From a virus (taxonomy: Duplodnaviria > Caudoviricetes), in IMG/VR virus record IMGVR_UViG_3300013121_000017, positions 128,001 through 192,000 of that record: DNA of 64,000 nt; one strand, given 5' to 3'. Under the pieces are notes generated by a model. It worked only from the letters and a program-made list of their open reading frames with translations. It made no database searches and was not told the DNA's origin. This document shows positions 16,470-35,016 of this stretch, piece after piece. Numbering within the stretch: the first letter of the stretch is position 1; each line of letters begins with the position of its first letter. The translations under genes and the position numbers were made by a program.

Positions 16470-16763
16470 CTATCCCTGTTTGTTCTGTCCGCCCGCTCCG
16501 CTGAGGTACTTTTCGAGTACGTCCCAGACGTTGGTGGACTTGAGTTTCTGCGGTCCTTGACCGCCTGCCCCTCCTGGCGCACCAGGGGGACCGCCCATGC
16601 CGCCACCGGGCGGCGGGCCACCCATAGGAGGACCACCCATAGGTGGACCACCGGGCGGCGGGCCACCAGCAGGTGGACCACCGGGAGGTGGTGCTGCTCC
16701 ACCGGGCGGCGCGGCGTCTTCCATCAGCTTCATCAGGTTCAGGTATTGGCCAAAGGACTTCAT
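16470..16763 (-). CDS. small Gly/Pro-rich protein
   Basis: MKSFGQYL start, GGPP repeats, TACATA box 5 nt upstream. Confidence 0.75.
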   Translation of the reverse strand: MKSFGQYLNLMKLMEDAAPPGGAAPPPGGPPAGGPPPGGPPMGGPPMGGPPPGGGMGGPPGAPGGAGGQGPQKLKSTNVWDVLEKYLSGAGGQNKQG

Positions 16764-16881
16764 GCCCTTATGTAGCGAAGAAAAATCGGAATCCGCGCGA
16801 ACATTCCTGACCCGGCCAGCGTCATAGAAGAGGACGCCGACGAGGCCCGCCGACTTTTTTTCGGAAAAACGGTGAGGCCAC

Positions 16882-16912
16882 TTGACGAGAAAAGAAATCG
16901 GCGTACTATATA
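16882..16912 (+). promoter_or_regulatory. promoter of the tRNA operon (sigma70-like, overlapping a TATATA box)
   Basis: TTGACG 16882-16887, TACTAT 16904-16909. Confidence 0.65.
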
Positions 16913-16969
16913 AGGTAACGCGGCAGAGGCTGCGGAATTTTCACCAACACAGAATTAGACAACACGACC

Positions 16970-17059
16970 ATGCACGTTTTCTCACTCAGTCTGTTTAGCT
17001 TGTCGTTGTCGTCCCTTTATCTGGGACGAGACGCTGGTTCTACGGACATGAGTGGGTGA
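16970..17059 (+). CDS. attenuator leader peptide MHVFSLSLFSLSLSSLYLGRDAGSTDMSG
   Basis: 15 consecutive F/S/L/Y codons upstream of a terminator and a Leu/Ser/Tyr/Phe tRNA array. Confidence 0.8.
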   Translation: MHVFSLSLFSLSLSSLYLGRDAGSTDMSG

Positions 17060-17085
17060 ACAAAAACACCACACGACTGAAACCC

Positions 17086-17129
17086 GAAGACCCGCGTCAT
17101 CAGACTGAAGACGCGGGTCTTTTTGTTTT
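17086..17129 (+). terminator. attenuator terminator (3:4 hairpin)
   Basis: GAAGACCCGCGTC/GACGCGGGTCTTT stem followed by a T-rich tract. Confidence 0.85.
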
Positions 17130-17144
17130 CATGGGGGTGCTTCG

Positions 17145-17480
17145 ATGTGGTTCAAGAGGTCGATCAGGATCTTGGTGAACGAGGGCAAGCGGGACGAGGC
17201 CAACTACAAGTTGTGCTTGAAGTTCCACATCAGCATGGCACATGCTGACGACATCATCAGGGAACTGGACCAGTACCAGTGGCATGTACGCCGAATCCCA
17301 GGAATGGACGACTTCATCAAGAAGACGCTGGCGGGTGATCCGAAGGCGTTGGTGACGGTTGTAAAGCGAATCAGGGAAGTGACTGCTTGGGGCTTGCTGG
17401 AATGCAAGCTGTACATGGAGGACGTAACGAAGGGCTTGAAGCCGTGGCCGGTCCCGCTCAATGAAGAGGGGGAAAATTGA
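17145..17480 (+). CDS. protein with ribosomal L7/L12 C-terminal-like motif
   Basis: VVKRIREVTAWGLLECKLYME resembles [20 protein letters not shown]. Confidence 0.6.
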   Translation: MWFKRSIRILVNEGKRDEANYKLCLKFHISMAHADDIIRELDQYQWHVRRIPGMDDFIKKTLAGDPKALVTVVKRIREVTAWGLLECKLYMEDVTKGLKPWPVPLNEEGEN

Positions 17481-17647
17481 AGAAGGTCACGGACGAAGAG
17501 ACGAAGTCATGGATGACGAACCGCGACAAGAAGATGCAGCCGAAGCCCGGCATGTTCTGGTGTGACTGCGATTGCAATCACGTCTGGGCATGGAAGAAGT
17601 GTGAACTGTGTCGGCGGCGAGTTGGCCGGCGGCGGTTCAAGAAGTGA
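17477..17647 (+). CDS. small Cys-rich (zinc-ribbon) protein
   Basis: TTG start, 56 aa, WCDCDC...CELC. Confidence 0.5.
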   Translation: MKKVTDEETKSWMTNRDKKMQPKPGMFWCDCDCNHVWAWKKCELCRRRVGRRRFKK

Positions 17648-17649
17648 TT

Positions 17650-17733
17650 GCGGGAGTGGCGGAACTGGTAGACGCGCAAGCCTCAGAAGCTTGTGGCCGC
17701 AAGGCCGTGTGGGTTCGAGTCCCACCTCCCGCA
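17650..17733 (+). tRNA. tRNA-Leu(CAG)
   Basis: cloverleaf, loop CTCAGAA, long variable arm. Confidence 0.95.
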
Positions 17734-17741
17734 CTGACAAG

Positions 17742-17772
17742 CTCGACTCTGTCGAGTCTGTTCTTTGACAAC
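17742..17772 (+). promoter_or_regulatory. boxA-like antitermination site with preceding hairpin
   Basis: CTCGAC-TCT-GTCGAG hairpin then TGTTCTTTGACAAC. Confidence 0.6.
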
Positions 17773-17877
17773 TGGGTGAGACAACAAAACGGTCCAGGGT
17801 CGTCAAGGTCCGGGCTAGATAGACGGGGGTGCTACCCCCGCACTACAACCCTGATCTTGACGATCCAAAGGACTGGC

Positions 17878-18132
17878 ATGAACATGAACGTTTGGTACGA
17901 GTACAAGAGGATGAAGGACGCTTTCCCTATGGGAACAGAAGTCATCCTGCGGCTGAAACCAATCGAAGAATACTTCGAGTTGATTTGGGCTGCCGATGCG
18001 GTTGGAAGAGTGATCGGGTACAATATCCACAAGTCACTCGTCATCGTGGAATTCGACAACGGAGCAGTGATGCACGTTGGAATGAAACTTCTCGAAAAGA
18101 CCGCGAACCTGATGCTTGATATGGAGATCTAG
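17878..18132 (+). CDS. hypothetical protein (paralog of 21716..21949)
   Basis: shared W...KxMKxxFPxG and VIGY motifs. Confidence 0.65.
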   Translation: MNMNVWYEYKRMKDAFPMGTEVILRLKPIEEYFELIWAADAVGRVIGYNIHKSLVIVEFDNGAVMHVGMKLLEKTANLMLDMEI

Positions 18133-18245
18133 TCATGTACCAACAAGAGTTCTCCAACGGCGACACCCATACGCCGTGGTTAATGTTCCTCATCGTCCTG
18201 ATCGCACTGTCGTGTGGTTTCGGACTGATGTTACTTGGGTGATAT

Positions 18246-18329
18246 GCCGAGATGGCGGAACTGGTAGACGCAGCAGACTCAAAATCTGCCGCTCGAAAGA
18301 GCGTGAGGGTTCGACTCCCTCTCTCGGCA
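18246..18329 (+). tRNA. tRNA-Leu(CAA)
   Basis: cloverleaf, loop CTCAAAA. Confidence 0.95.
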
Positions 18330-18331
18330 CT

Positions 18332-18481
18332 GGTCGGATGACAGTAGGACTACATTGCAAAACTGCTGGCCGAAAGGCCGTTCGGGTGCAAGTCCCGACG
18401 CTGCTCGCAAGGGTGGTGTGGTGAAACAGCAGACACGGCAGTCAGGGGAAACCCATGAAGTCTTGCGACTTTTTGCCGACC
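18332..18481 (+). ncRNA. YrlA/Y-RNA-like permuted tRNA mimic
   Basis: GGTCGG/CCGACC terminal stem; variable arm and T arm precede a GCAA-closed acceptor stem, then the D arm. Confidence 0.75.
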
Positions 18482-18486
18482 TAAAT

Positions 18487-18570
18487 GCGGATGTGATGGA
18501 ACTGGTAGACTTCCAAGGTTGAGAGCCTTGGGCCTTTAGTGGCGTGTGGGTTCGAGTCCCACCATCCGCA
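18487..18570 (+). tRNA. tRNA-Leu(GAG)
   Basis: cloverleaf, loop TTGAGAG. Confidence 0.92.
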
Positions 18571-18576
18571 CTGCTT

Positions 18577-18658
18577 GTATCGGTTGGGCATTGGCAAGCC
18601 CCCCTGGCTGTAACCCAGGTGCTTTCGAGCTTTAGAGGTTCGACTCCTCTCCGATACA
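18577..18658 (+). tRNA. tRNA-Tyr(GTA)
   Basis: cloverleaf, loop CTGTAAC. Confidence 0.92.
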
Positions 18659-18660
18659 CT

Positions 18661-18718
18661 CGACCGGGCCTGGATGCCCAACGGATTGGTGCGGGTTCGA
18701 TTCCCAAGCCGGTCGCCA
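18661..18718 (+). other. truncated tRNA-like element
   Basis: CGACCGG/CCGGTCG stem, GGG-TTCGATT-CCC T arm and CCA end; no full D or anticodon arm. Confidence 0.5.
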
Positions 18719-18720
18719 AC

Positions 18721-18802
18721 GGGTGAGATGTTCCAATGGTGGGACACCAGACTGTAAATCTGGCGCGTTTACGCACGGTGGGTTCGATCCCCACCTCACC
18801 CA
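18721..18802 (+). tRNA. tRNA-Tyr(GTA)
   Basis: cloverleaf, loop CTGTAAA. Confidence 0.92.
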
Positions 18803-18805
18803 CTT

Positions 18806-18887
18806 GGGTCTGCTAGTGCTGTGGGAAGCCAGTCTGGCTGTAAACCAGACGCTTTCGAGATAGGGGGTTCGATTCCTCACAGACCCA
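18806..18887 (+). tRNA. tRNA-Tyr(GTA), weak D arm
   Basis: GGGTCTG/CAGACCC acceptor, loop CTGTAAA. Confidence 0.8.
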
Positions 18888-18893
18888 CTGAAT

Positions 18894-18966
18894 GCCTACC
18901 AAGCTAATCTAGTGAAAGCGGATGCCTGAAGAGCATCATAGCCCGGAGCGTAACCGGGGGTAGGCA
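18894..18966 (+). tRNA. tRNA-Phe(GAA), atypical T loop AGCGTAA
   Basis: GCCTACC/GGTAGGC acceptor, loop CTGAAGA. Confidence 0.82.
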
Positions 18967-18968
18967 CT

Positions 18969-19095
18969 GGCCGGTATGCAGTAGGGGATTACATGAGCAA
19001 CAGCGACTCGGGGGGTTTCAAAGCTCCCTTGTGCCGGTGCGATTCCGGTGTCCTGGGGTAAAACCTGGGGTTATCTCCTGCAATTTTGATCGGCC
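18969..19095 (+). ncRNA. YrlA/Y-RNA-like tRNA mimic
   Basis: GGCCGGT/ATCGGCC stem, GGGGATTACA...ATCTCCTGCAATTTTG module flanking D, anticodon and T arms and a closed acceptor-like hairpin. Confidence 0.7.
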
Positions 19096-19099
19096 TTAT

Positions 19100-19172
19100 G
19101 GACAGCAAGCTAATCTGGTGAAAGCGGAGGTCTGAAAAGCCTCATAGCCCGGATCGAAACCGGGGCTGTCCA
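19100..19172 (+). tRNA. tRNA-Phe(GAA)
   Basis: GGACAGC/GCTGTCC acceptor, loop CTGAAAA. Confidence 0.88.
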
Positions 19173-19400
19173 CTACTTCTTCTGAACGAGCTTGCGAAGG
19201 TCGGAAGAAGACTTGGAAGGATTCCTGATGATCTCCTTGACGAGATCGTCGCCCTTGCCGTTGCTGACTTTTGACCAGACAGATAGCAACGTGGTACGGT
19301 TGTACTTCTCGGCGAGGCCGCGAATGCAGTTGACGAAAGACTCAACGCACTCAACGTCGCTGCTTGAAGTTTCGGTGAGGAACTGGTCGAATGTGTCCAT
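19173..19400 (-). CDS. small late protein, antisense within the tRNA array
   Basis: MDTFDQFLTE start with TACATA 6 nt upstream; fills the gap between two tRNAs. Confidence 0.7.
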   Translation of the reverse strand: MDTFDQFLTETSSSDVECVESFVNCIRGLAEKYNRTTLLSVWSKVSNGKGDDLVKEIIRNPSKSSSDLRKLVQKK

Positions 19401-19420
19401 GAAGGATATGTAGTTTGCAC

Positions 19421-19509
19421 GGATAGGTTTGCACATTGGCAAGTCAGACTCTTTGCTAAAGAGTTCCACCCTGAAAGGGGTGGTGCAGGTTCGACTCCTG
19501 TCCTATCCG
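19421..19509 (+). tRNA. tRNA-Ser(GCT)
   Basis: loop TTGCTAA, long variable arm, G73. Confidence 0.9.
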
Positions 19510-19512
19510 CTT

Positions 19513-19599
19513 GGAAGAGTTGGTACATTGGCAAGTCCGCTCGTCTCGAAAACGAGTCTGCCTGAAAGGGCAGTGCAGGTTCGACTCCTGTCTCTTCCG
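19513..19599 (+). tRNA. tRNA-Ser(CGA)
   Basis: loop CTCGAAA, long variable arm, G73. Confidence 0.92.
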
Positions 19600-19602
19600 C
19601 TT

Positions 19603-19791
19603 ATGGTCGAGTACGAGATCAAGAAAGGCAGCAAGCACCAGAACAGGTCTTGCCGCTTCTGTGGTGGTAGAATGACACCGGGAAGGAAGTTCGTCCTCGA
19701 CCCGGAAGTCTTCGATGGGCATCTGCCCGCGATCTTCCATCCGCAGTGTAGAACAGCCTGGGTTAAGCGTGGCAAGAAGCCGCTGAAGTGA
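19603..19791 (+). CDS. small zinc-finger-like protein
   Basis: CRFCGG...HPQC. Confidence 0.55.
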   Translation: MVEYEIKKGSKHQNRSCRFCGGRMTPGRKFVLDPEVFDGHLPAIFHPQCRTAWVKRGKKPLK

Positions 19792-19793
19792 AT

Positions 19794-19880
19794 GGAGCAG
19801 TTTGCACATTGGCAAGTCAGTTCGCTTGGAAAGCGAATACACCCGAAAGGGTGTTGCAGGTTCGACTCCTGTCTGCTCCG
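19794..19880 (+). tRNA. tRNA-Ser(GGA)
   Basis: loop TTGGAAA, long variable arm, G73. Confidence 0.92.
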
Positions 19881-19883
19881 CTT

Positions 19884-19953
19884 GATGGCCCCCGGATGGT
19901 GATTCGGTGGCAGATGCCAAAGCCGTAAGTCGGGTTCGACTCCCTGGTCATCA
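19884..19953 (+). pseudogene. degenerate tRNA-like element
   Basis: GATGGCC/GGTCATC acceptor and GGG-TTCGACT-CCC T arm; poor anticodon stem. Confidence 0.5.
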
Positions 19954-19976
19954 CCTAGCACGAAAGCGAGAATGAA

Positions 19977-20306
19977 ATGGATCTGATCAAGTACGACGAC
20001 TTCGCCAAGCTGGACCTTCGGGTCTGCACCATCAAGGAGGCGTCAGCCGTCGAAGGGGCCGACAAGCTCGTCCTGCTCAAGCTGGACGATGGGACCGAGG
20101 CAGGCCGGCAGATCGTGGCCGGCATCAAGAAGCACTACTCGCCCGAGACGCTCATCGGCACACAAGTGATCGTCGTGGCGAACTTGGAACCGCGCAAGCT
20201 GCGTGGGATCGAGAGCCAGGGCATGTTGCTGGCAGCCAGCAACGGCGAGGAACTGGCCCTGTTGCAGCCGCAGAAGCTGATCGCGGCAGGCAGCAAGGTC
20301 GGATAA
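19977..20306 (+). CDS. tRNA-binding OB-fold protein (Trbp111/MetRS C-terminal-like)
   Basis: FAKLDLRV...RQIVAGI...NLEPRKLRGIESQGMLLAA. Confidence 0.92.
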   Translation: MDLIKYDDFAKLDLRVCTIKEASAVEGADKLVLLKLDDGTEAGRQIVAGIKKHYSPETLIGTQVIVVANLEPRKLRGIESQGMLLAASNGEELALLQPQKLIAAGSKVG

Positions 20307-20312
20307 CGACCC

Positions 20313-20399
20313 GGAAGGTTTGGTACATTGGCAAGTCCGATGGTCTTGAAAACCATTACACGGGAAACCGTGTTGTCGGTTCGACTCCGACACCTTCCG
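20313..20399 (+). tRNA. tRNA-Ser(TGA)
   Basis: loop CTTGAAA, long variable arm, G73. Confidence 0.92.
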
Positions 20400-20401
20400 C
20401 T

Positions 20402-20554
20402 ATGACAGACGAGGACTTCGAGATCGGTGGCTGCGGCTGCCTCGCAATACTCCTGCTGGTCGCGTTGACCATCGGGATCTGCGTCTGGAAGTACCACAAT
20501 CCGACGCCTCCAAAGCGTCATGTTCAGGTTGAAGTGTGCAGGATGACATGTTAA
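20402..20554 (+). CDS. small membrane protein
   Basis: MTDEDFEIGGCGCLAILLLVALTIGICVW. Confidence 0.5.
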   Translation: MTDEDFEIGGCGCLAILLLVALTIGICVWKYHNPTPPKRHVQVEVCRMTC

Positions 20555-20787
20555 GGGTCATCGAGTGTGTCGAATCAAGGTACGACGTGAAGCCATTTGA
20601 AGGTTACACGTTCGACCAGATTCTTCAACTCCTTCAAAAGAACGAGGCACAAACGCTGAACGACCCGACAACGGGCGAGAAGGGAGTTTACATTCCCACG
20701 CCACGTCAACAACCGGGTGTCAAGCAGATCGCGGCAATGGTTCCACACAGGGACCGAAACAGAACTGTTACTTACGGGTGTGACTAA
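20536..20787 (+). CDS. hypothetical protein
   Basis: ORF in a tRNA spacer. Confidence 0.45.
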   Translation: MQDDMLRVIECVESRYDVKPFEGYTFDQILQLLQKNEAQTLNDPTTGEKGVYIPTPRQQPGVKQIAAMVPHRDRNRTVTYGCD

Positions 20788-20874
20788 CGGAGATGGCTGG
20801 TATGCCGGGCGGCTTTATAGTATCCGATTGCGGCCTATGCCAGACTGTGTCAGGTTCGATTCCTACCACGCCCA
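20776..20874 (+). ncRNA. 99-nt atypical tRNA-like RNA, copy 1
   Basis: GGGTGTG/CACGCCC acceptor, TTCGATT T loop. Confidence 0.6.
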
Positions 20875-20877
20875 CTT

Positions 20878-20976
20878 GAGTGCGACTCTGGAGATGCTGG
20901 ACACACCGGGCGGCTTTTCATGGTTGCCGATTGCGGTTCCTGTTCGGCTGAGTTGGTTCGACTCCAACAGCACTCA
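20878..20976 (+). ncRNA. 99-nt atypical tRNA-like RNA, copy 2
   Basis: GAGTGC/GCACTC acceptor, GTTGG-TTCGACT-CCAAC T arm; shares internal motifs with copy 1. Confidence 0.6.
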
Positions 20977-20980
20977 CTAT

Positions 20981-21139
20981 GTTCCGTTGGTGTAAAAAGG
21001 CGACGGATAGCGTCTGTCGCAGTCACTTGTAAACTGCCAGCACAGGAGGGTCGCGAACCTCCCCCGCAGTGTACCTTGGGACTCAGCACGGCTCCTCTGG
21101 AGGGAGACAGGGCAGGTGCGAACCCTGCACGGGACACCA
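20981..21139 (+). ncRNA. tRNA-like RNA with ~90-nt structured D-loop insertion
   Basis: GTTCCGT/ACGGGAC acceptor plus ACCA, GTGT/GCAC D stem, GCAGG/CCTGC T stem. Confidence 0.65.
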
Positions 21140-21153
21140 TACAAAGGCAAGTT

Positions 21154-21324
21154 ATGAGCGTGATTCAACGCTGTGAGATCAAGCGGCACGAACCCTTCAA
21201 AGGTGATGCGTGTCCTGAATGCGGGAAGATCCAGGCGAACAGCCAGTTCGCCGGATGGCTTGTCATGGGATTCATCTTCCTGGCAGGCGCGTTGGCGTGG
21301 ATGTTCCTGGCCAAGAAGTTCTGA
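21154..21324 (+). CDS. small zinc-ribbon membrane protein
   Basis: CPECG followed by a TM helix. Confidence 0.55.
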   Translation: MSVIQRCEIKRHEPFKGDACPECGKIQANSQFAGWLVMGFIFLAGALAWMFLAKKF

Positions 21325-21328
21325 TTGA

Positions 21329-21400
21329 CCCACTCTGGTGTAGTGGTCTGCACATGATGCTGAAAACATCGGGGTCTGAGTTCGATTCTCAGGGGTGGGA
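21329..21400 (+). tRNA. tRNA-Phe(GAA)
   Basis: CCCACTC/GGGTGGG acceptor, loop CTGAAAA. Confidence 0.85.
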
Positions 21401-21402
21401 CT

Positions 21403-21530
21403 GACCGGATGACGACAGGGATTACACTCTCGAAAAGTGTTCTACGCAAGTAGATGTAGGTTCGATTCCTACCGTCGCAAGACGAGGTGGATATTGGCTT
21501 GCCACTACGTCTCTGACATTTTTGCCGGTC
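21403..21530 (+). ncRNA. YrlA/Y-RNA-like permuted tRNA mimic (Ser-CGA-like body)
   Basis: GACCGG/CCGGTC stem; order anticodon arm, variable arm, T arm, CGTC-GCAA-GACG, D arm. Confidence 0.8.
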
Positions 21531-21536
21531 TAATTT

Positions 21537-21662
21537 GACGGGGTAGCTTAACGGTAGAGCGCTAAAAGCGATCTCAGCAACTTGTTGCCCGAAAGGGATG
21601 ATCCGTTGGGATTACATTCCTCTGAAAAAGGAGAGGTACTGGTTCGACTCCAGTCCCCGTCA
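21537..21662 (+). ncRNA. tRNA-Phe(GAA)-shaped RNA with the Y-RNA-like module inserted between D and anticodon arms
   Basis: GACGGGG/CCCCGTC open acceptor; 55-nt insert 21562-21616 closed by CCC-GAAA-GGG. Confidence 0.75.
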
Positions 21663-21715
21663 CTCAAAACAGATGCCCGCAACCTCCACTACATAACATG
21701 TAATTAGGAGGAACT

Positions 21716-21949
21716 ATGATCAACCCGTGGGCAGACCTAGCAAAGATGAAACGTGACTTCCCCATCGGCGTTCTCGTCGTTGTTGACGAGGATGTCACAG
21801 ATGGCGCGGACGACATCGGAGGAATGATCCTCAAAGTCATTGGCTACGAGATCGAGCAAGGATGGCTAGAACTGGTCAGTGAGAACGGCAGAGAATTCGT
21901 TCTCTACCCAGACGAGATCACAAGACACTATGAAAGCCAAGTGTGCTAG
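21716..21949 (+). CDS. hypothetical protein (paralog of 17878..18132)
   Basis: GGAGG SD; shared motifs with the paralog. Confidence 0.7.
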   Translation: MINPWADLAKMKRDFPIGVLVVVDEDVTDGADDIGGMILKVIGYEIEQGWLELVSENGREFVLYPDEITRHYESQVC

Positions 21950-21956
21950 ATAGTGC

Positions 21957-22400
21957 ATGGACTTCCGACACTGGCTAGAAGCAACTGAACAGCCCGAACC
22001 GAATCCGCTCCCGCCCGAAGCAAAGATCGAGCGGTCGCAGGGCGACGGCTGGAAGATCACGACCCCTTACGGCTACATCGACTACCGCCACAACCCAGAA
22101 GACGGCAACAACGAGATCTGGTGGGTGGAATCGAAAGTACGCGGCAAGGGCTATGGCAAGAAGCTCGTTGACCTAATGCAAATGGCCCACCCCGCAGCCA
22201 GCATCGGTTGGGGAGTGACGACGCCGGAAGGTAAAGACCTCCGCGACAGTTGGCACAAGAAGAACCCAGGAGTTGAAGCATACAACGGCGCGTTTGAGGG
22301 ACAGTTCGACCCCTCGGGCAACAACTACGGAGAAGACGAATCGGACGAAGACTTCGAGGATGAAGACGAGGACTGGGAGGACGAAGATGATGACTTTTGA
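21957..22400 (+). CDS. GNAT-like acetyltransferase with acidic tail
   Basis: VRGKGYGKKL acetyl-CoA motif A. Confidence 0.7.
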   Translation: MDFRHWLEATEQPEPNPLPPEAKIERSQGDGWKITTPYGYIDYRHNPEDGNNEIWWVESKVRGKGYGKKLVDLMQMAHPAASIGWGVTTPEGKDLRDSWHKKNPGVEAYNGAFEGQFDPSGNNYGEDESDEDFEDEDEDWEDEDDDF

Positions 22401-22629
22401 CCAGTTCTTGGATGAGAAGACCGCCGACCTGAGATGGCCAGGAGACTGTAACGCCAAAACACTCGACCGCAAGGCTGAAACCGACCGCTGCTACATCGAG
22501 CCGGGCCACAGCCACGACAAGGTCAAAGATCGCCAGTTCGGCACTACAGTAACAGTGATCCCCAGACACAAGGCCGTAAACCCGTACACTTGCAAAGCGA
22601 TCATAAGGGACTTGCAGAGGAGTTGTTGA
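22387..22629 (+). CDS. HicA-like RNase
   Basis: GHSHDKV...TVIPRH...YTCKAIIRDL resembles HicA GSH...VPxH...GTxxxIxK. Confidence 0.6.
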   Translation: MMTFDQFLDEKTADLRWPGDCNAKTLDRKAETDRCYIEPGHSHDKVKDRQFGTTVTVIPRHKAVNPYTCKAIIRDLQRSC

Positions 22630-22823
22630 TGATTCCCCCTGGAACCATAGTCGAAGCAATTCACGGCTGGTGGAAGGGGACTTACGGCGAAGTGGAAGAG
22701 CCGGACAAAGACAACCCCGAAGAGAGTTCGATAGTCCTCTTCCCGTGTAGAATCATCAGGGACGGCAAACTGTACACGGAAGCCAGAGTCAACATGCCGA
22801 ACGCTTGGCTGAGGTTTCAGTGA
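22629..22823 (+). CDS. hypothetical protein
   Basis: ORF coupled to both neighbours. Confidence 0.55.
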   Translation: MIPPGTIVEAIHGWWKGTYGEVEEPDKDNPEESSIVLFPCRIIRDGKLYTEARVNMPNAWLRFQ

Positions 22824-23161
22824 ACATCCTTTTTGTCTGTTCGCGAAACAAGAAACGAAGCCCGACAGCCGAGACAATTTTCTCGGGAGTCAAAGGCATA
22901 GAAGTCGCGTCGGCAGGGACGGCCAAGGACGCCGAAGAACAAGTGACCCCAGAACACCTCGAATGGGCGAACCTGATCTTCGTGATGGAGTCTTACCATA
23001 AGGTGAGACTCACCGAGATGTACGGAAGACATCTCAACGGCAAACGGATCGTGTGCCTGAACATCAAGGATCGATTCGAGTACATGGATAACGAACTGGT
23101 CGCTTTACTGCGAGCCAGAGTGACTGCGGTTGTGGCGGAACTGGTAGACGCGCAAGCTTGA
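22820..23161 (+). CDS. low-molecular-weight protein tyrosine phosphatase-like protein
   Basis: ILFVCSRNKKRS P-loop, SAGT; 3' end overlaps a tRNA. Confidence 0.88.
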   Translation: MNILFVCSRNKKRSPTAETIFSGVKGIEVASAGTAKDAEEQVTPEHLEWANLIFVMESYHKVRLTEMYGRHLNGKRIVCLNIKDRFEYMDNELVALLRARVTAVVAELVDAQA

Positions 23162-23209
23162 GGGGCTTGTGGCCGCAAGGCCGTGTGGGTTCGACTCCCA
23201 CCAACCGCA
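23126..23209 (+). tRNA. tRNA-Leu(GAG)
   Basis: cloverleaf, loop TTGAGGG. Confidence 0.93.
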
Positions 23210-23211
23210 CT

Positions 23212-23466
23212 ATGAAGAATGCGAAGACTGAAAAACAGAAGAAGAAGGAAGAGAGACGCAGGAACAAAGGCACAATCGCCGTGTACGCACTGTGCGACTG
23301 CGGCTGTTGTACCGCGAAGATGCGGTTCAGGTCTGAAAAATCAGCCCTGGAAGCGTTCAAGGCTGCCGGCTTGAAGAACTCGGCCACAATCACGGATGAT
23401 CAGGGTACGGTTCATGAAGGCATCGACACGTTCTACGGGTTGAGCCTGACAGATACGCGGATGTGA
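23212..23466 (+). CDS. small Cys-rich protein
   Basis: CDCGCC motif. Confidence 0.55.
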   Translation: MKNAKTEKQKKKEERRRNKGTIAVYALCDCGCCTAKMRFRSEKSALEAFKAAGLKNSATITDDQGTVHEGIDTFYGLSLTDTRM

Positions 23467-23540
23467 TGGAATTGGTAGACTTCCGGTCCTCAGAAGGCCG
23501 GGCCTTTAGTGGCGTGTGGGTTCGAGTCCCACCATCCGCA
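23457..23540 (+). tRNA. tRNA-Leu(CAG)
   Basis: cloverleaf, loop CTCAGAA. Confidence 0.92.
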
Positions 23541-23555
23541 CTACTAGATAGGGTC

Positions 23556-24338
23556 ATGAACTTCAAGCAATGGATCGAGTCCCTGGAACTCATGGCCCTG
23601 CGGTCGCACCTCAAAAACCCGTCGATGGACATTGCGGGCCACGGCTGGGATCTACTGAGTTGGCGCGGCGGCAAAGCAATCATGAAGCGTCTGGGTATCG
23701 ACCCAGGCAAGTTCAGGACTGCGATGGAAGAAGGCGAGGAAGAGTTCTACACGATGGCCGACCGAATCGGCAAGGGCATGTCCCGTGATGAACAAGAAGA
23801 CTTCCTGGCCTACATGAACCAACACAACCCAGGCGACGTGCCAACACACTCGCTGATGGACCTGCAATCACAAAGAGGACGCAAGGGCTATCTGCCGCCG
23901 ACAACTTGGCTAATCCACTTCAGCGATGACGCCGAGAGCGTGGCTGACGAAGGGTTGACACAGGGCCAAGGTGACATCGACAAATTAGCCCTCACAGTTC
24001 ACCAAAGCAAATACGAGAAGCAGTACGGCGGGTACAACTTCGCCTTCACTGCCGATGGGCGACACGCCCGACAGGCAGCACGAAGCGGTAAGTATGGACA
24101 GAACGCTGTGATGTTTCAAGCATCCGGCATCCCGGTTTACCACTACAGTGACGAGGAAGATCAAGTGGTAGTCTGGGGCAAGGATGTGCCGGCGAGCAGA
24201 ATGGTCTTGCTCACCAATGACGGCGGGGACTGGACTGTCCGTAGCCGCAAAGGAGGGAGAGATCCCTTCACAGGAGATTTCGACAAAACGGTTGCCTGGG
24301 TCATGAAGAACTACAACCAGTACAGAAGGGTTCTATGA
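23556..24338 (+). CDS. hypothetical late protein
   Basis: MNFKQWIE start with TAGATA 5 nt upstream. Confidence 0.75.
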   Translation: MNFKQWIESLELMALRSHLKNPSMDIAGHGWDLLSWRGGKAIMKRLGIDPGKFRTAMEEGEEEFYTMADRIGKGMSRDEQEDFLAYMNQHNPGDVPTHSLMDLQSQRGRKGYLPPTTWLIHFSDDAESVADEGLTQGQGDIDKLALTVHQSKYEKQYGGYNFAFTADGRHARQAARSGKYGQNAVMFQASGIPVYHYSDEEDQVVVWGKDVPASRMVLLTNDGGDWTVRSRKGGRDPFTGDFDKTVAWVMKNYNQYRRVL

Positions 24339-24826
24339 CCTCGCAAGAGAAATACCGGAAAGCAATCGCCGACCGACCGACCAACGAAGAACTCAAATAC
24401 TGGGCGACCCTGGAACACAGAGCCGACGAGATTCAGAAGAAGGTGTTCGACGCTGACCTCGAAGAACGCAACGACCGATTCAAGATCTGGTTCGAGGAGT
24501 ACAAGCGTCAGCGGGTTTGTATGAGCAACGGCGTCGAGTTCATGGACTGGAAGAAACAGTTCGATGAAAGCGTCAGAATTATGTCCAGCCTGGACCCCGA
24601 CAAGATCCAGATCAATGTACTGCTGGCATGCTTCGAGGCCGACGAACAAGCCGGCGTAGCCGCCCTAAAATACGTTCAGGAGAACGAGCCTGAGATCCCC
24701 GACCCCGAGATGGTCGAACAACAGGCCCAGGCACGAAAGTGGATGGATGACATGGAAAAGGCTGACCAATTACACCGTGCAAGGATTGAGGCTGTGAGAT
24801 GCGGTTTGATGTACGACGGAGATTGA
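24335..24826 (+). CDS. hypothetical protein
   Basis: ATGA-coupled ORF. Confidence 0.7.
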   Translation: MTSQEKYRKAIADRPTNEELKYWATLEHRADEIQKKVFDADLEERNDRFKIWFEEYKRQRVCMSNGVEFMDWKKQFDESVRIMSSLDPDKIQINVLLACFEADEQAGVAALKYVQENEPEIPDPEMVEQQAQARKWMDDMEKADQLHRARIEAVRCGLMYDGD

Positions 24827-24830
24827 TTAC

Positions 24831-24912
24831 GGCCCTGTGGTGGAACAGGTAGACACACTCCTCTTAAAAGGGAACGCCAATAGGCATGCGGGTTCGACTC
24901 CCGCCGGGGCTA
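24831..24912 (+). tRNA. tRNA-Leu(TAA)
   Basis: loop CTTAAAA, variable arm. Confidence 0.9.
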
Positions 24913-24966
24913 CTAAAAATCCTGGGTTAAGGCGTGTATCAGTACACCCTTTTCACAGGAGAGACG

Positions 24967-25170
24967 ATGAGATTTCAAGATTGGGTTGGAAAGAGAAGTG
25001 AGTTTGGAAGAGAACTGCGGGATGAAAGAATCCAGCAGTTGACCGATCAGTGGTGGCAGGCTAAAGTCGATCAAGACTACCGGCGTGCCAAGTCCATCGA
25101 GGACGAACTGAACCTGAAGTATGACACCGTCGTTGATATGGGCGGGTCTTCAATCTTCGGGGATTTGTGA
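24967..25170 (+). CDS. hypothetical protein
   Basis: AGGAG SD, MRFQDWV start. Confidence 0.6.
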   Translation: MRFQDWVGKRSEFGRELRDERIQQLTDQWWQAKVDQDYRRAKSIEDELNLKYDTVVDMGGSSIFGDL

Positions 25171-25171
25171 T

Positions 25172-25252
25172 GGCCATGTGGCGAAACGGTATACGCGCTG
25201 GTCTTAGAAGCCAGTCCCGAAAGGGTTGAGGGTTCGACTCCCTCCTTGGTCA
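25172..25252 (+). tRNA. tRNA-Leu(TAG)
   Basis: loop CTTAGAA. Confidence 0.92.
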
Positions 25253-25265
25253 CTTAGAATGCAAT

Positions 25266-25806: not shown

Positions 25807-25811
25807 CGTAG

Positions 25812-25842
25812 GGGCGTCCAATTAGGACGCCCTTTTTCTTTT
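25812..25842 (+). terminator. intrinsic terminator, probable end of the tRNA operon
   Basis: GGGCGTCC/GGACGCCC stem plus T-tract. Confidence 0.75.
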
Positions 25843-25858
25843 GACCGCACTATAATGA

Positions 25859-34513: not shown

Positions 34514-34894
34514 ATGCCATCAAAATCCCCCGAGAAGAACCGAGAGTACCAGCGAGCATGGTTTGCGAAGCACAAGGAAGTCCAAAAAGCTCGCAACAAA
34601 GACAACCGCAAGAAGAAGCTGCAATGGTTTTCCGAATACAAATCAACTCTGAAGTGCGTTAAGTGCGGCGAATCTCACGTCGCCACGCTTGACTTTCACC
34701 ATCGCGACCCGACTATAAAAGAAGACGGAATCGGCCTCCTGATACGGAGAGCCTGGAGTATCGAACGGATACTCGAAGAAATCGCCAAGTGCGATGTGCT
34801 TTGCAGCAACTGTCACCGGAAGCTACACTACGAGGAATGCACTGGACAGTTTGCTTATCGAGCGGTAGCTGACGGCCAGCACGCAGCCTTATAA
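34514..34894 (+). CDS. HNH endonuclease
   Basis: CVKCGE...LDFHH...CDVLCSNCHRKLH. Confidence 0.88.
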   Translation: MPSKSPEKNREYQRAWFAKHKEVQKARNKDNRKKKLQWFSEYKSTLKCVKCGESHVATLDFHHRDPTIKEDGIGLLIRRAWSIERILEEIAKCDVLCSNCHRKLHYEECTGQFAYRAVADGQHAAL

Positions 34895-34947
34895 ACTGCT
34901 TAGGGTCTGATAAACCCGAGAAGTGGGTTCGACTCCCACCCGCTCGA
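34859..34947 (+). tRNA. tRNA with TAT anticodon (Ile AUA) and long variable arm
   Basis: CGAGCGG/CCGCTCG acceptor, loop CTTATAA, GTGGG-TTCGACT-CCCAC. Confidence 0.8.
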
Positions 34948-35016
34948 CTTAACTCCCTTGCCCTCTACTTCAAACACCCGCTCGTCTTCCTATATACCGC
35001 AAAGGAAGGTGAGCGG

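Follow-up and report, generated by a model that had tools for sequence, protein, structure and literature searches.

An array of Leu, Ser, Tyr, and Phe tRNA genes in this phage is very probably governed by a multivalent, ribosome-mediated transcription attenuator. The element is of the classical attenuator type; what is new is its output, tRNA genes. Its anatomy, the selection on its codons, the match between leader and array, and a switch that depends on ribosome position are shown by sequence and computation, while translation of the leader and switching in vivo are inferred. The original prediction had recognized the layout of trp, his, and pheM attenuation; every defining feature of that layout that was examined is met computationally, although the segment assignment needs a correction concerning the protector hairpin. 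The window analyzed here (64,000 nt) is part of a linear record of 261,680 bases, estimated to be ~52% complete.

Table 1. Features of the attenuator, its tRNA operon, and sister leader-array pairs in two relatives.
Feature	Location	Strand	Details
Sigma-70-type promoter	16882..16909	+	-35 at 16882-16887, -10 at 16904-16909; start site unmapped; both hexamers conserved in relatives
Leader ORF	16970..17059	+	29 codons
Protector (anti-antiterminator) hairpin	16976..17061	+	34 pairs, -45.2 kcal/mol; in the untranslated leader, control codons paired with segment 2
Control codons 4-18 (segment 1)	16979..17023	+	Leu/Ser/Tyr/Phe exclusively
Apical 7-bp hairpin (1:2 of the original prediction)	17009..17029	+	Antiterminator-compatible
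Segment 2, antiterminator 5′ arm	17030..17045	+	Pairs with 17084-17098, 13 pairs
Segments 3 and 4, intrinsic terminator hairpin	17084..17129	+	Predicted; U tract 17120-17129
First two genes after the terminator	17145..17647	+	111 aa and 56 aa, no known function; missing from many relatives, where a tRNA directly follows the terminator
tRNA array	17650..25253	+	8 kb; Leu x7 (CAG x2, GAG x2, CAA, TAA, TAG), Ser x4 (GCT, CGA, GGA, TGA), Tyr x3 (GTA), Phe x3 (GAA)
Stand-alone tRNA-binding OB-fold protein (PF01588)	19977..20306	+	Within the array; conserved in L004, L006, L011
Terminator, likely end of transcription unit	25810..25844	+	
G012 array L/S/F	L195, L211		Leader match 72% (residues 4-23)
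G012 array A/E/G/M/P/V	L193		Leader match 95% (residues 4-23)
G012 array C/D/G/H/I/K/N/Q/R/T/W	L194		Leader match 95% (residues 4-23)
G018, two more leader-array pairs	L196, L197		Leader match 95% (L196), 60% (L197)

The leader itself reads as originally described, with codons 4–18 specifying only Phe, Ser, Leu, and Tyr through 12 different codons. No longer run of this kind than these 15 codons exists in any of the record’s six frames (the runner-up has 11), and L/S/Y/F residues make up 21% of its long ORFs. Codons 2–17 contain 14/16 L/S/Y/F codons, compared with 8.1 in base shuffles (p = 1e-4), and base composition therefore does not explain the run; the other two frames of the same codons give counts of 5 and 6. 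Leader codons directly match 9/11 anticodon types of the array, and the claim that each Ser anticodon has a cognate leader codon is true for 4/4. Leu TTA and CTA are absent from this leader and present in homologous ones. Leaders favor TAT (89% of Tyr codons) and TTT (68% of Phe codons), compared with 16% and 14% in the phage’s long genes, a preference that is merely suggestive because relatives vary in base composition. The ribosome-binding region is weak and A-rich in this genome, with clearer purine-rich sites in several relatives.

Downstream, ARAGORN identified 16 tRNAs between 17650 and 25253 (Leu x7, Ser x4, Tyr x3, Phe x2), and a third Phe tRNA at 18894–18967 was detected at a relaxed threshold, in agreement with the 17 tRNAs, restricted to these four amino acids, that had been counted initially. 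Additional degenerate tRNA copies are also Ser, Phe, and Leu, except for one weak Gly-like element, and small ORFs and tRNA-like elements are interspersed throughout. The array may contain internal promoters, and the PF01588 protein is a possible chaperone of the array tRNAs. In seven relatives the first tRNA lies 9–25 nt behind the terminator, implying that the conserved target is the tRNAs and not the two intervening small proteins; regulation of these proteins alone was rejected on this ground. Only five homologues of the 111-aa protein were found, and a search with it in viral contigs gave no match. Its gene (17145–17480) has a faint match to the Ribosomal_L12 C-terminal domain (E 0.006, below the cut-off).

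Homologous loci were retrieved by synteny through the neighboring SbcD gene, which led to relatives of up to 530–595 kb, including GenBank LR756511.1. Start and stop codons are present in 24/24 distinct homologous leaders from these related giant phages (SbcD 42–74% identical). The leader is retained in five close relatives, where it differs by synonymous substitutions, exchanges between Leu CTN and TTR codons, and in-frame indels (one-codon deletions). Leaders of distant relatives (SbcD 42–55% identical) have 18–33 codons and an ATG or GTG start; their codon order is scrambled and their terminators are unrelated, and each precedes a Leu/Ser/Tyr/Phe array. Codon order and terminator sequence thus diverge among homologues, whereas frame and composition are conserved. 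The L/S/Y/F content was frame-specific, beyond base composition, in 21/23 leaders tested. When codons 2–17 were pooled, 290/368 (79%) were L/S/Y/F, compared with 165 (45%) in shuffles; the observed total is slightly low, the wrong ORF having been counted for locus L102. The original prediction was to be abandoned if homologues kept only pyrimidine richness without a match in frame or codons to their tRNAs. This was not the case, as homologues retain the frame, change synonymously or in frame, use purine-rich AGY Ser codons, and match their own arrays.

A uniform scan (short ORF, 11/14 L/S/Y/F, terminator within ≤125 nt) matched 20/22 loci with L/S/Y/F tRNAs and 0/144 loci without them (2.19 Mb). 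The two misses are L040, which has a leader found by eye, and L143, a single lone tRNA. Leader-bearing genomes are scattered over the SbcD tree among genomes in which no leader was seen (8 changes; most records are fragments). Because loci are related and partly duplicated, these counts overstate independence.

The match between leader and array extends to other amino acids. The suggestion that leader codons should co-vary with cluster content was borne out in relatives G012 and G018, where arrays for other amino acids carry leaders matching their own arrays (Table 1). The complete 572-kb genome of G012 has three arrays, each with its own terminator and leader. The leader match listed in Table 1 is the share of leader residues 4–23 drawn from the amino acids of the array concerned. 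Leader matches to other-class arrays were ≤20% in these two genomes, and the score of the leader-array assignment was equalled by only 2/720 permutations. Since genomes of this type are related, this shows matching and not the number of independent events. Leaders L099 and L029 have two Cys codons each, and genes with Cys anticodons occur in the arrays behind them: ARAGORN called two tRNA-Cys in L099, and L029 has a single tRNA-like gene; for two leaders with one Cys codon, no Cys tRNA was detected in their arrays. The leader of a second array in G011 falls beyond the contig start. At one G012 array, the promoter is separated from the leader by two or three tRNA genes, Met(CAT) among them (L194:15176-15340, minus strand), which would therefore be made whatever attenuation does. 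No second leader copy was found in the phage’s own record, from which additional arrays are possibly missing given its estimated completeness. The L/S/Y/F restriction may partly reflect the family’s splitting of its tRNA set into operons, as tRNAs for the remaining amino acids are encoded in arrays of their own in complete relatives.

The hexamers of the proposed promoter are present ahead of the ORF, and their support comes from conservation of both in relatives, because promoter-like matches in the region are at chance level (6 found, 5.5 expected). The naked leader is predicted to fold into the 34-pair hairpin followed by the terminator, in a region of very high stability (z = -6.4). The terminator, initially placed at 17086–17129, is a GC-rich hairpin of predicted -24 to -25 kcal/mol plus the U tract, and the 2:3 pairing forms the antiterminator as claimed. 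However, the 7-bp 1:2 hairpin, which had been thought to exclude the antiterminator, is compatible with it; the excluding structure is the much longer protector. The apical hairpin is a possible pause hairpin, an inferred role.

Ribosome occupancy was modeled with constrained folds in which covered bases were unpaired and the transcript ended before segment 4, using a free-energy metric that replaced a noisy pairing-probability metric. All folds are at equilibrium and stand in for a kinetic switch. Capture of segment 3 amounted to 10–15 kcal/mol with the A site on codons 5–17. With the A site upstream of codon 4 or downstream of codon 18, it was only 4–6 kcal/mol; it fell from 15 kcal/mol at codon 17 to 6 kcal/mol at codon 19. 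Folding with and without constraints, a check proposed beforehand, thus upheld an antiterminator that forms only while a ribosome occupies the control run, but not the exclusivity of the 1:2 hairpin. Similarly, translation to the stop codon had been expected to occlude the antiterminator; in the folds, the antiterminator is lost earlier, once the ribosome is past about codon 18. Here and in most homologues, capture falls off where the control run ends; in short-tailed leaders it does so at the stop codon. Compared with shuffled spacers, capture in this genome was 12.0 vs. 5.9 ± 2.0 kcal/mol (0/60 shuffles), and it exceeded shuffles in 20/26 loci; in 6/26 loci no antiterminator above shuffles was seen at the single stall position tested. 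When only the footprint was masked, the contrast was ~5 kcal/mol here, best on codons 4–12, and larger in L003 and L006. Over six sequences, base pairing in the protector is preserved at 94.5%, and 14 alternative pair types occur. Antiterminator pairs are near-invariant in close kin, making covariation there uninformative. In L006, a terminator pair changed in a compensatory manner from C-G to T-A, and that T also gains a partner in segment 2.

Taken together, the folds suggest how the switch could operate. RNA polymerase would initiate at the promoter and a ribosome would load onto the leader. With ample charged tRNA, the ribosome would pass codon 18 and cover segment 2, allowing the terminator to form. 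Slow decoding at any codon for Leu, Ser, Tyr, or Phe would hold the ribosome on approximately codons 5–17, where it would block the 5′ strand of the protector and leave segment 2 free to capture segment 3, and the array would be transcribed. In the absence of translation, the long protector hairpin would hold segment 2 and transcription would terminate. The array tRNAs would refill the pool sampled by the leader, forming a negative feedback loop. Given 12 codons and 9/11 matched anticodon types, we infer that nearly any isoacceptor shortage could be sensed.

Other readings of the element can be weighed against these data. It could be an untranslated structured RNA, either an sRNA or a protein-bound switch, with the L/S/Y/F reading a by-product of a pyrimidine-rich pairing strand, as the stable fold, the kept protector pairs, and the weak ribosome-binding site might suggest. 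Yet base shuffles and the other frames give half the L/S/Y/F count, codons for Pro, Cys, Arg, and Val are scarce where a pyrimidine-rich strand should supply them, AGY accounts for 42/128 Ser codons in leaders, start and stop codons are preserved in 24/24 leaders, and other arrays are preceded by purine-rich leaders. Pure pyrimidine bias was rejected, and we regard the structured-RNA reading as very improbable. We place no more weight on a nascent-peptide attenuator independent of tRNA supply, whether through TnaC-like, ligand-dependent arrest or as a functional small hydrophobic peptide. The peptide is indeed hydrophobic and hydroxyl-rich, with a C-terminal part conserved in close kin, but this conserved tail overlaps RNA segment 2, distant kin keep composition only and not residue order or C-terminus, and leaders of sister arrays are polar. 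An arrest leader of the TnaC or SecM type was rejected in the absence of a position-specific arrest motif, with order and C-termini differing in distant homologues.

Somewhat less remote, though still improbable, is a general translation-stress sensor, in which the array would be turned on by any stall in the responsive codons (from antibiotics, ribosome damage, or uncoupling), with codon identity of minor importance. Any stall on codons 5–17 yields an identical model fold, translational stress induces a cyanobacterial tRNA array (PMC8421152), and uORF sensors of general ribosome stress are known (PMC12121999). However, the composition of each leader follows the amino acids of its own array, and a generic sensor would need neither that nor a leader for every array; moreover, an untranslated leader is expected to terminate because of the protector hairpin.

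The tRNA-responsive attenuator favored here can be compared with known systems. It shares with the amino-acid operon attenuators (trpL, hisL, pheL, leuL) a promoter, a short ORF with control codons, a 1:2 protector, a 2:3 antiterminator, and a 3:4 terminator. Multivalent members of that group include thrL and the ilvGMEDA leader. The phage element differs in that its output is tRNA genes and not biosynthetic enzymes, and in that it samples four amino acids, most isoacceptor codons about once each, where theirs is a one-codon run. The features that define attenuators are present: a short ORF lies between promoter and first regulated gene, and its control codons are more frequent than chance predicts and correspond to the function under regulation; an intrinsic terminator is predicted 3′ of the leader; and, computationally, the antiterminator shares segment 3, the protector shares segment 2, and the spacing is such that a stall on control codons frees segment 2 and passage covers it (less strongly with footprint-only masking). 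The element departs from the trp/his/phe/ilv/pheM subtype, whose regulated genes serve to synthesize or activate the amino acid, as tRNA genes, a tRNA-binding protein, and small ORFs without known function lie downstream. T-box riboswitches are alike in answering tRNA charging with a terminator/antiterminator switch, but they bind one uncharged tRNA directly and have no leader ORF. A T-box was rejected here, no Rfam family having matched 16700–17650 at E up to 5.

In the pheL attenuator, a control-codon stall leads to read-through, and fast or absent translation to termination (PMC3082878). In E. coli, the pheM attenuator of pheST, encoding PheRS, places a part of the translation machinery under leader-peptide control by charged tRNA, as in the phage, but pheM controls the synthetase for one amino acid, whereas the phage element controls the tRNAs themselves, for four (PMC5371410). 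The nearest inducible tRNA array is the trn operon of Anabaena PCC 7120 (L-array), a silent array repressed by TrcR and induced by impaired translation (PMC8421152; PMC10272220). There, a repressor protein acts at initiation and no codon-specific leader is involved; the word “attenuation” is absent from PMC8421152. No attenuator of a phage tRNA array was known when the element was first noticed, and a literature search on phage tRNAs with attenuators, leader peptides, or antitermination likewise found none on a tRNA array or in this phage role (subscription journals were mostly uncovered).

The trigger can only be inferred. Loss, inactivation, or shortage of tRNA, through host tRNA-attacking defenses or infection demand, is likelier than amino-acid starvation, because extra tRNA cannot replace a missing amino acid, the four amino acids have no common biosynthetic pathway, and several tRNAs of the array show unusual anticodon-loop flanks as well as redundant variants. 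Two papers document host defenses that act by depleting tRNAs and are countered by phage tRNAs, which replace those destroyed in the host, with Tyr, Leu, and Ser tRNAs named as targets; this further supports tRNA loss or shortage as the trigger (PMC11555353; PMC10264068). The cases given there are tRNA-Tyr of T5 and SP15 against retron Eco7 PtuAB, tRNA-Lys against PrrC, and mycobacteriophage anticodon-loop variants. Unlike in the array described here, a strong promoter drives those tRNAs, and no sensing switch is described in the passages concerned. Whether giant phages possess a built-in surveillance of host tRNA attack is more speculative, and we hold the idea at slightly below even. Each operon’s leader would sample nearly every decoded codon, a host defense that cleaves or inactivates one isoacceptor would switch on just that replacement block, and the Leu/Ser/Tyr/Phe grouping (with Cys in two relatives) would mirror a shared vulnerability, for instance long variable arms or decoding of U-starting codons. 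The grouping comprises three long-variable-arm families plus Phe, and it may stem from a historical partition of the tRNA set and not from a specific threat, since the remaining tRNAs of complete relatives lie in sister operons.

Why phages carry tRNA genes has been debated for 50 years, the alternatives being codon compensation and replacement of destroyed host tRNAs (PMC10264068). A codon-matched attenuator would make phage tRNAs an on-demand reserve whose signal is slow decoding of their own codons. The array retains anticodons for TTA and CTA, just 1% and 3% of Leu codons in the phage’s long genes, a pattern more in line with replacement than with codon compensation. A type of control familiar from amino-acid and synthetase genes would extend to viral tRNA genes, and the leader could serve as a short, portable reporter of failing tRNAs during infection or defense activation.

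Near-identical DNA occurs in wastewater runs. A DNA-pattern search of viral contigs found one relative only, and one of metagenome contigs found no relatives (one further match was due to chance). RNA runs X1–X3 (metatranscriptome contigs) contain near-identical pieces with flat, unstranded depth of ~2–7 over genes of both strands, and their tRNA peaks derive from other organisms; without a readable start, end, or strand, this coverage is evidence neither for nor against the attenuator. A HEAT-repeat protein of the window has its nearest look-alikes in Planctomycetota clusters (score 0.89), a host lead only. Contigs with the phage family’s SbcD occur inside bacterial MAGs of Acidimicrobiaceae and Bacteriovoracaceae (L185, 271 kb; L187, 546 kb) and are probably mis-binned phage genomes.

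Several unusual RNAs were also noted. The phage encodes a tmRNA outside the window (G000:C1:233616-233996), with a strong terminator downstream of it. Within the array, tRNA-like elements at 18332–18481, 18969–19095, 21400–21530, and 21536–21665 have a common short module in the place of the D-arm, the last being a tRNA-Phe(GAA) body with a ~55-nt insert between D and anticodon arms. Two further elements (20785–20975 and 20978–21140) are tRNA-shaped but lack a clear D stem or carry large inserts, and loops like theirs recur in L004, L006, L008, and L011. In some relatives, Leu anticodons (CAA, TAG, TAA, CAG) are carried on a short class I variable loop (L031:11195-11346, minus strand; L078/L202; L033; L208; L190; L206). 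The usual form of tRNA-Leu in bacteria has a long variable arm. Some relatives also carry tRNAs whose wobble base is A (Phe AAA, Ser AGA; L027:7833, L202:16702, L093:2735), and such tRNAs are rare in bacteria. Outside the array, a lone tRNA with a TAT (Ile) anticodon and a long body lies at 34859–34948; UAU allo-tRNAs have been described (Mukai et al., PMC5389517).
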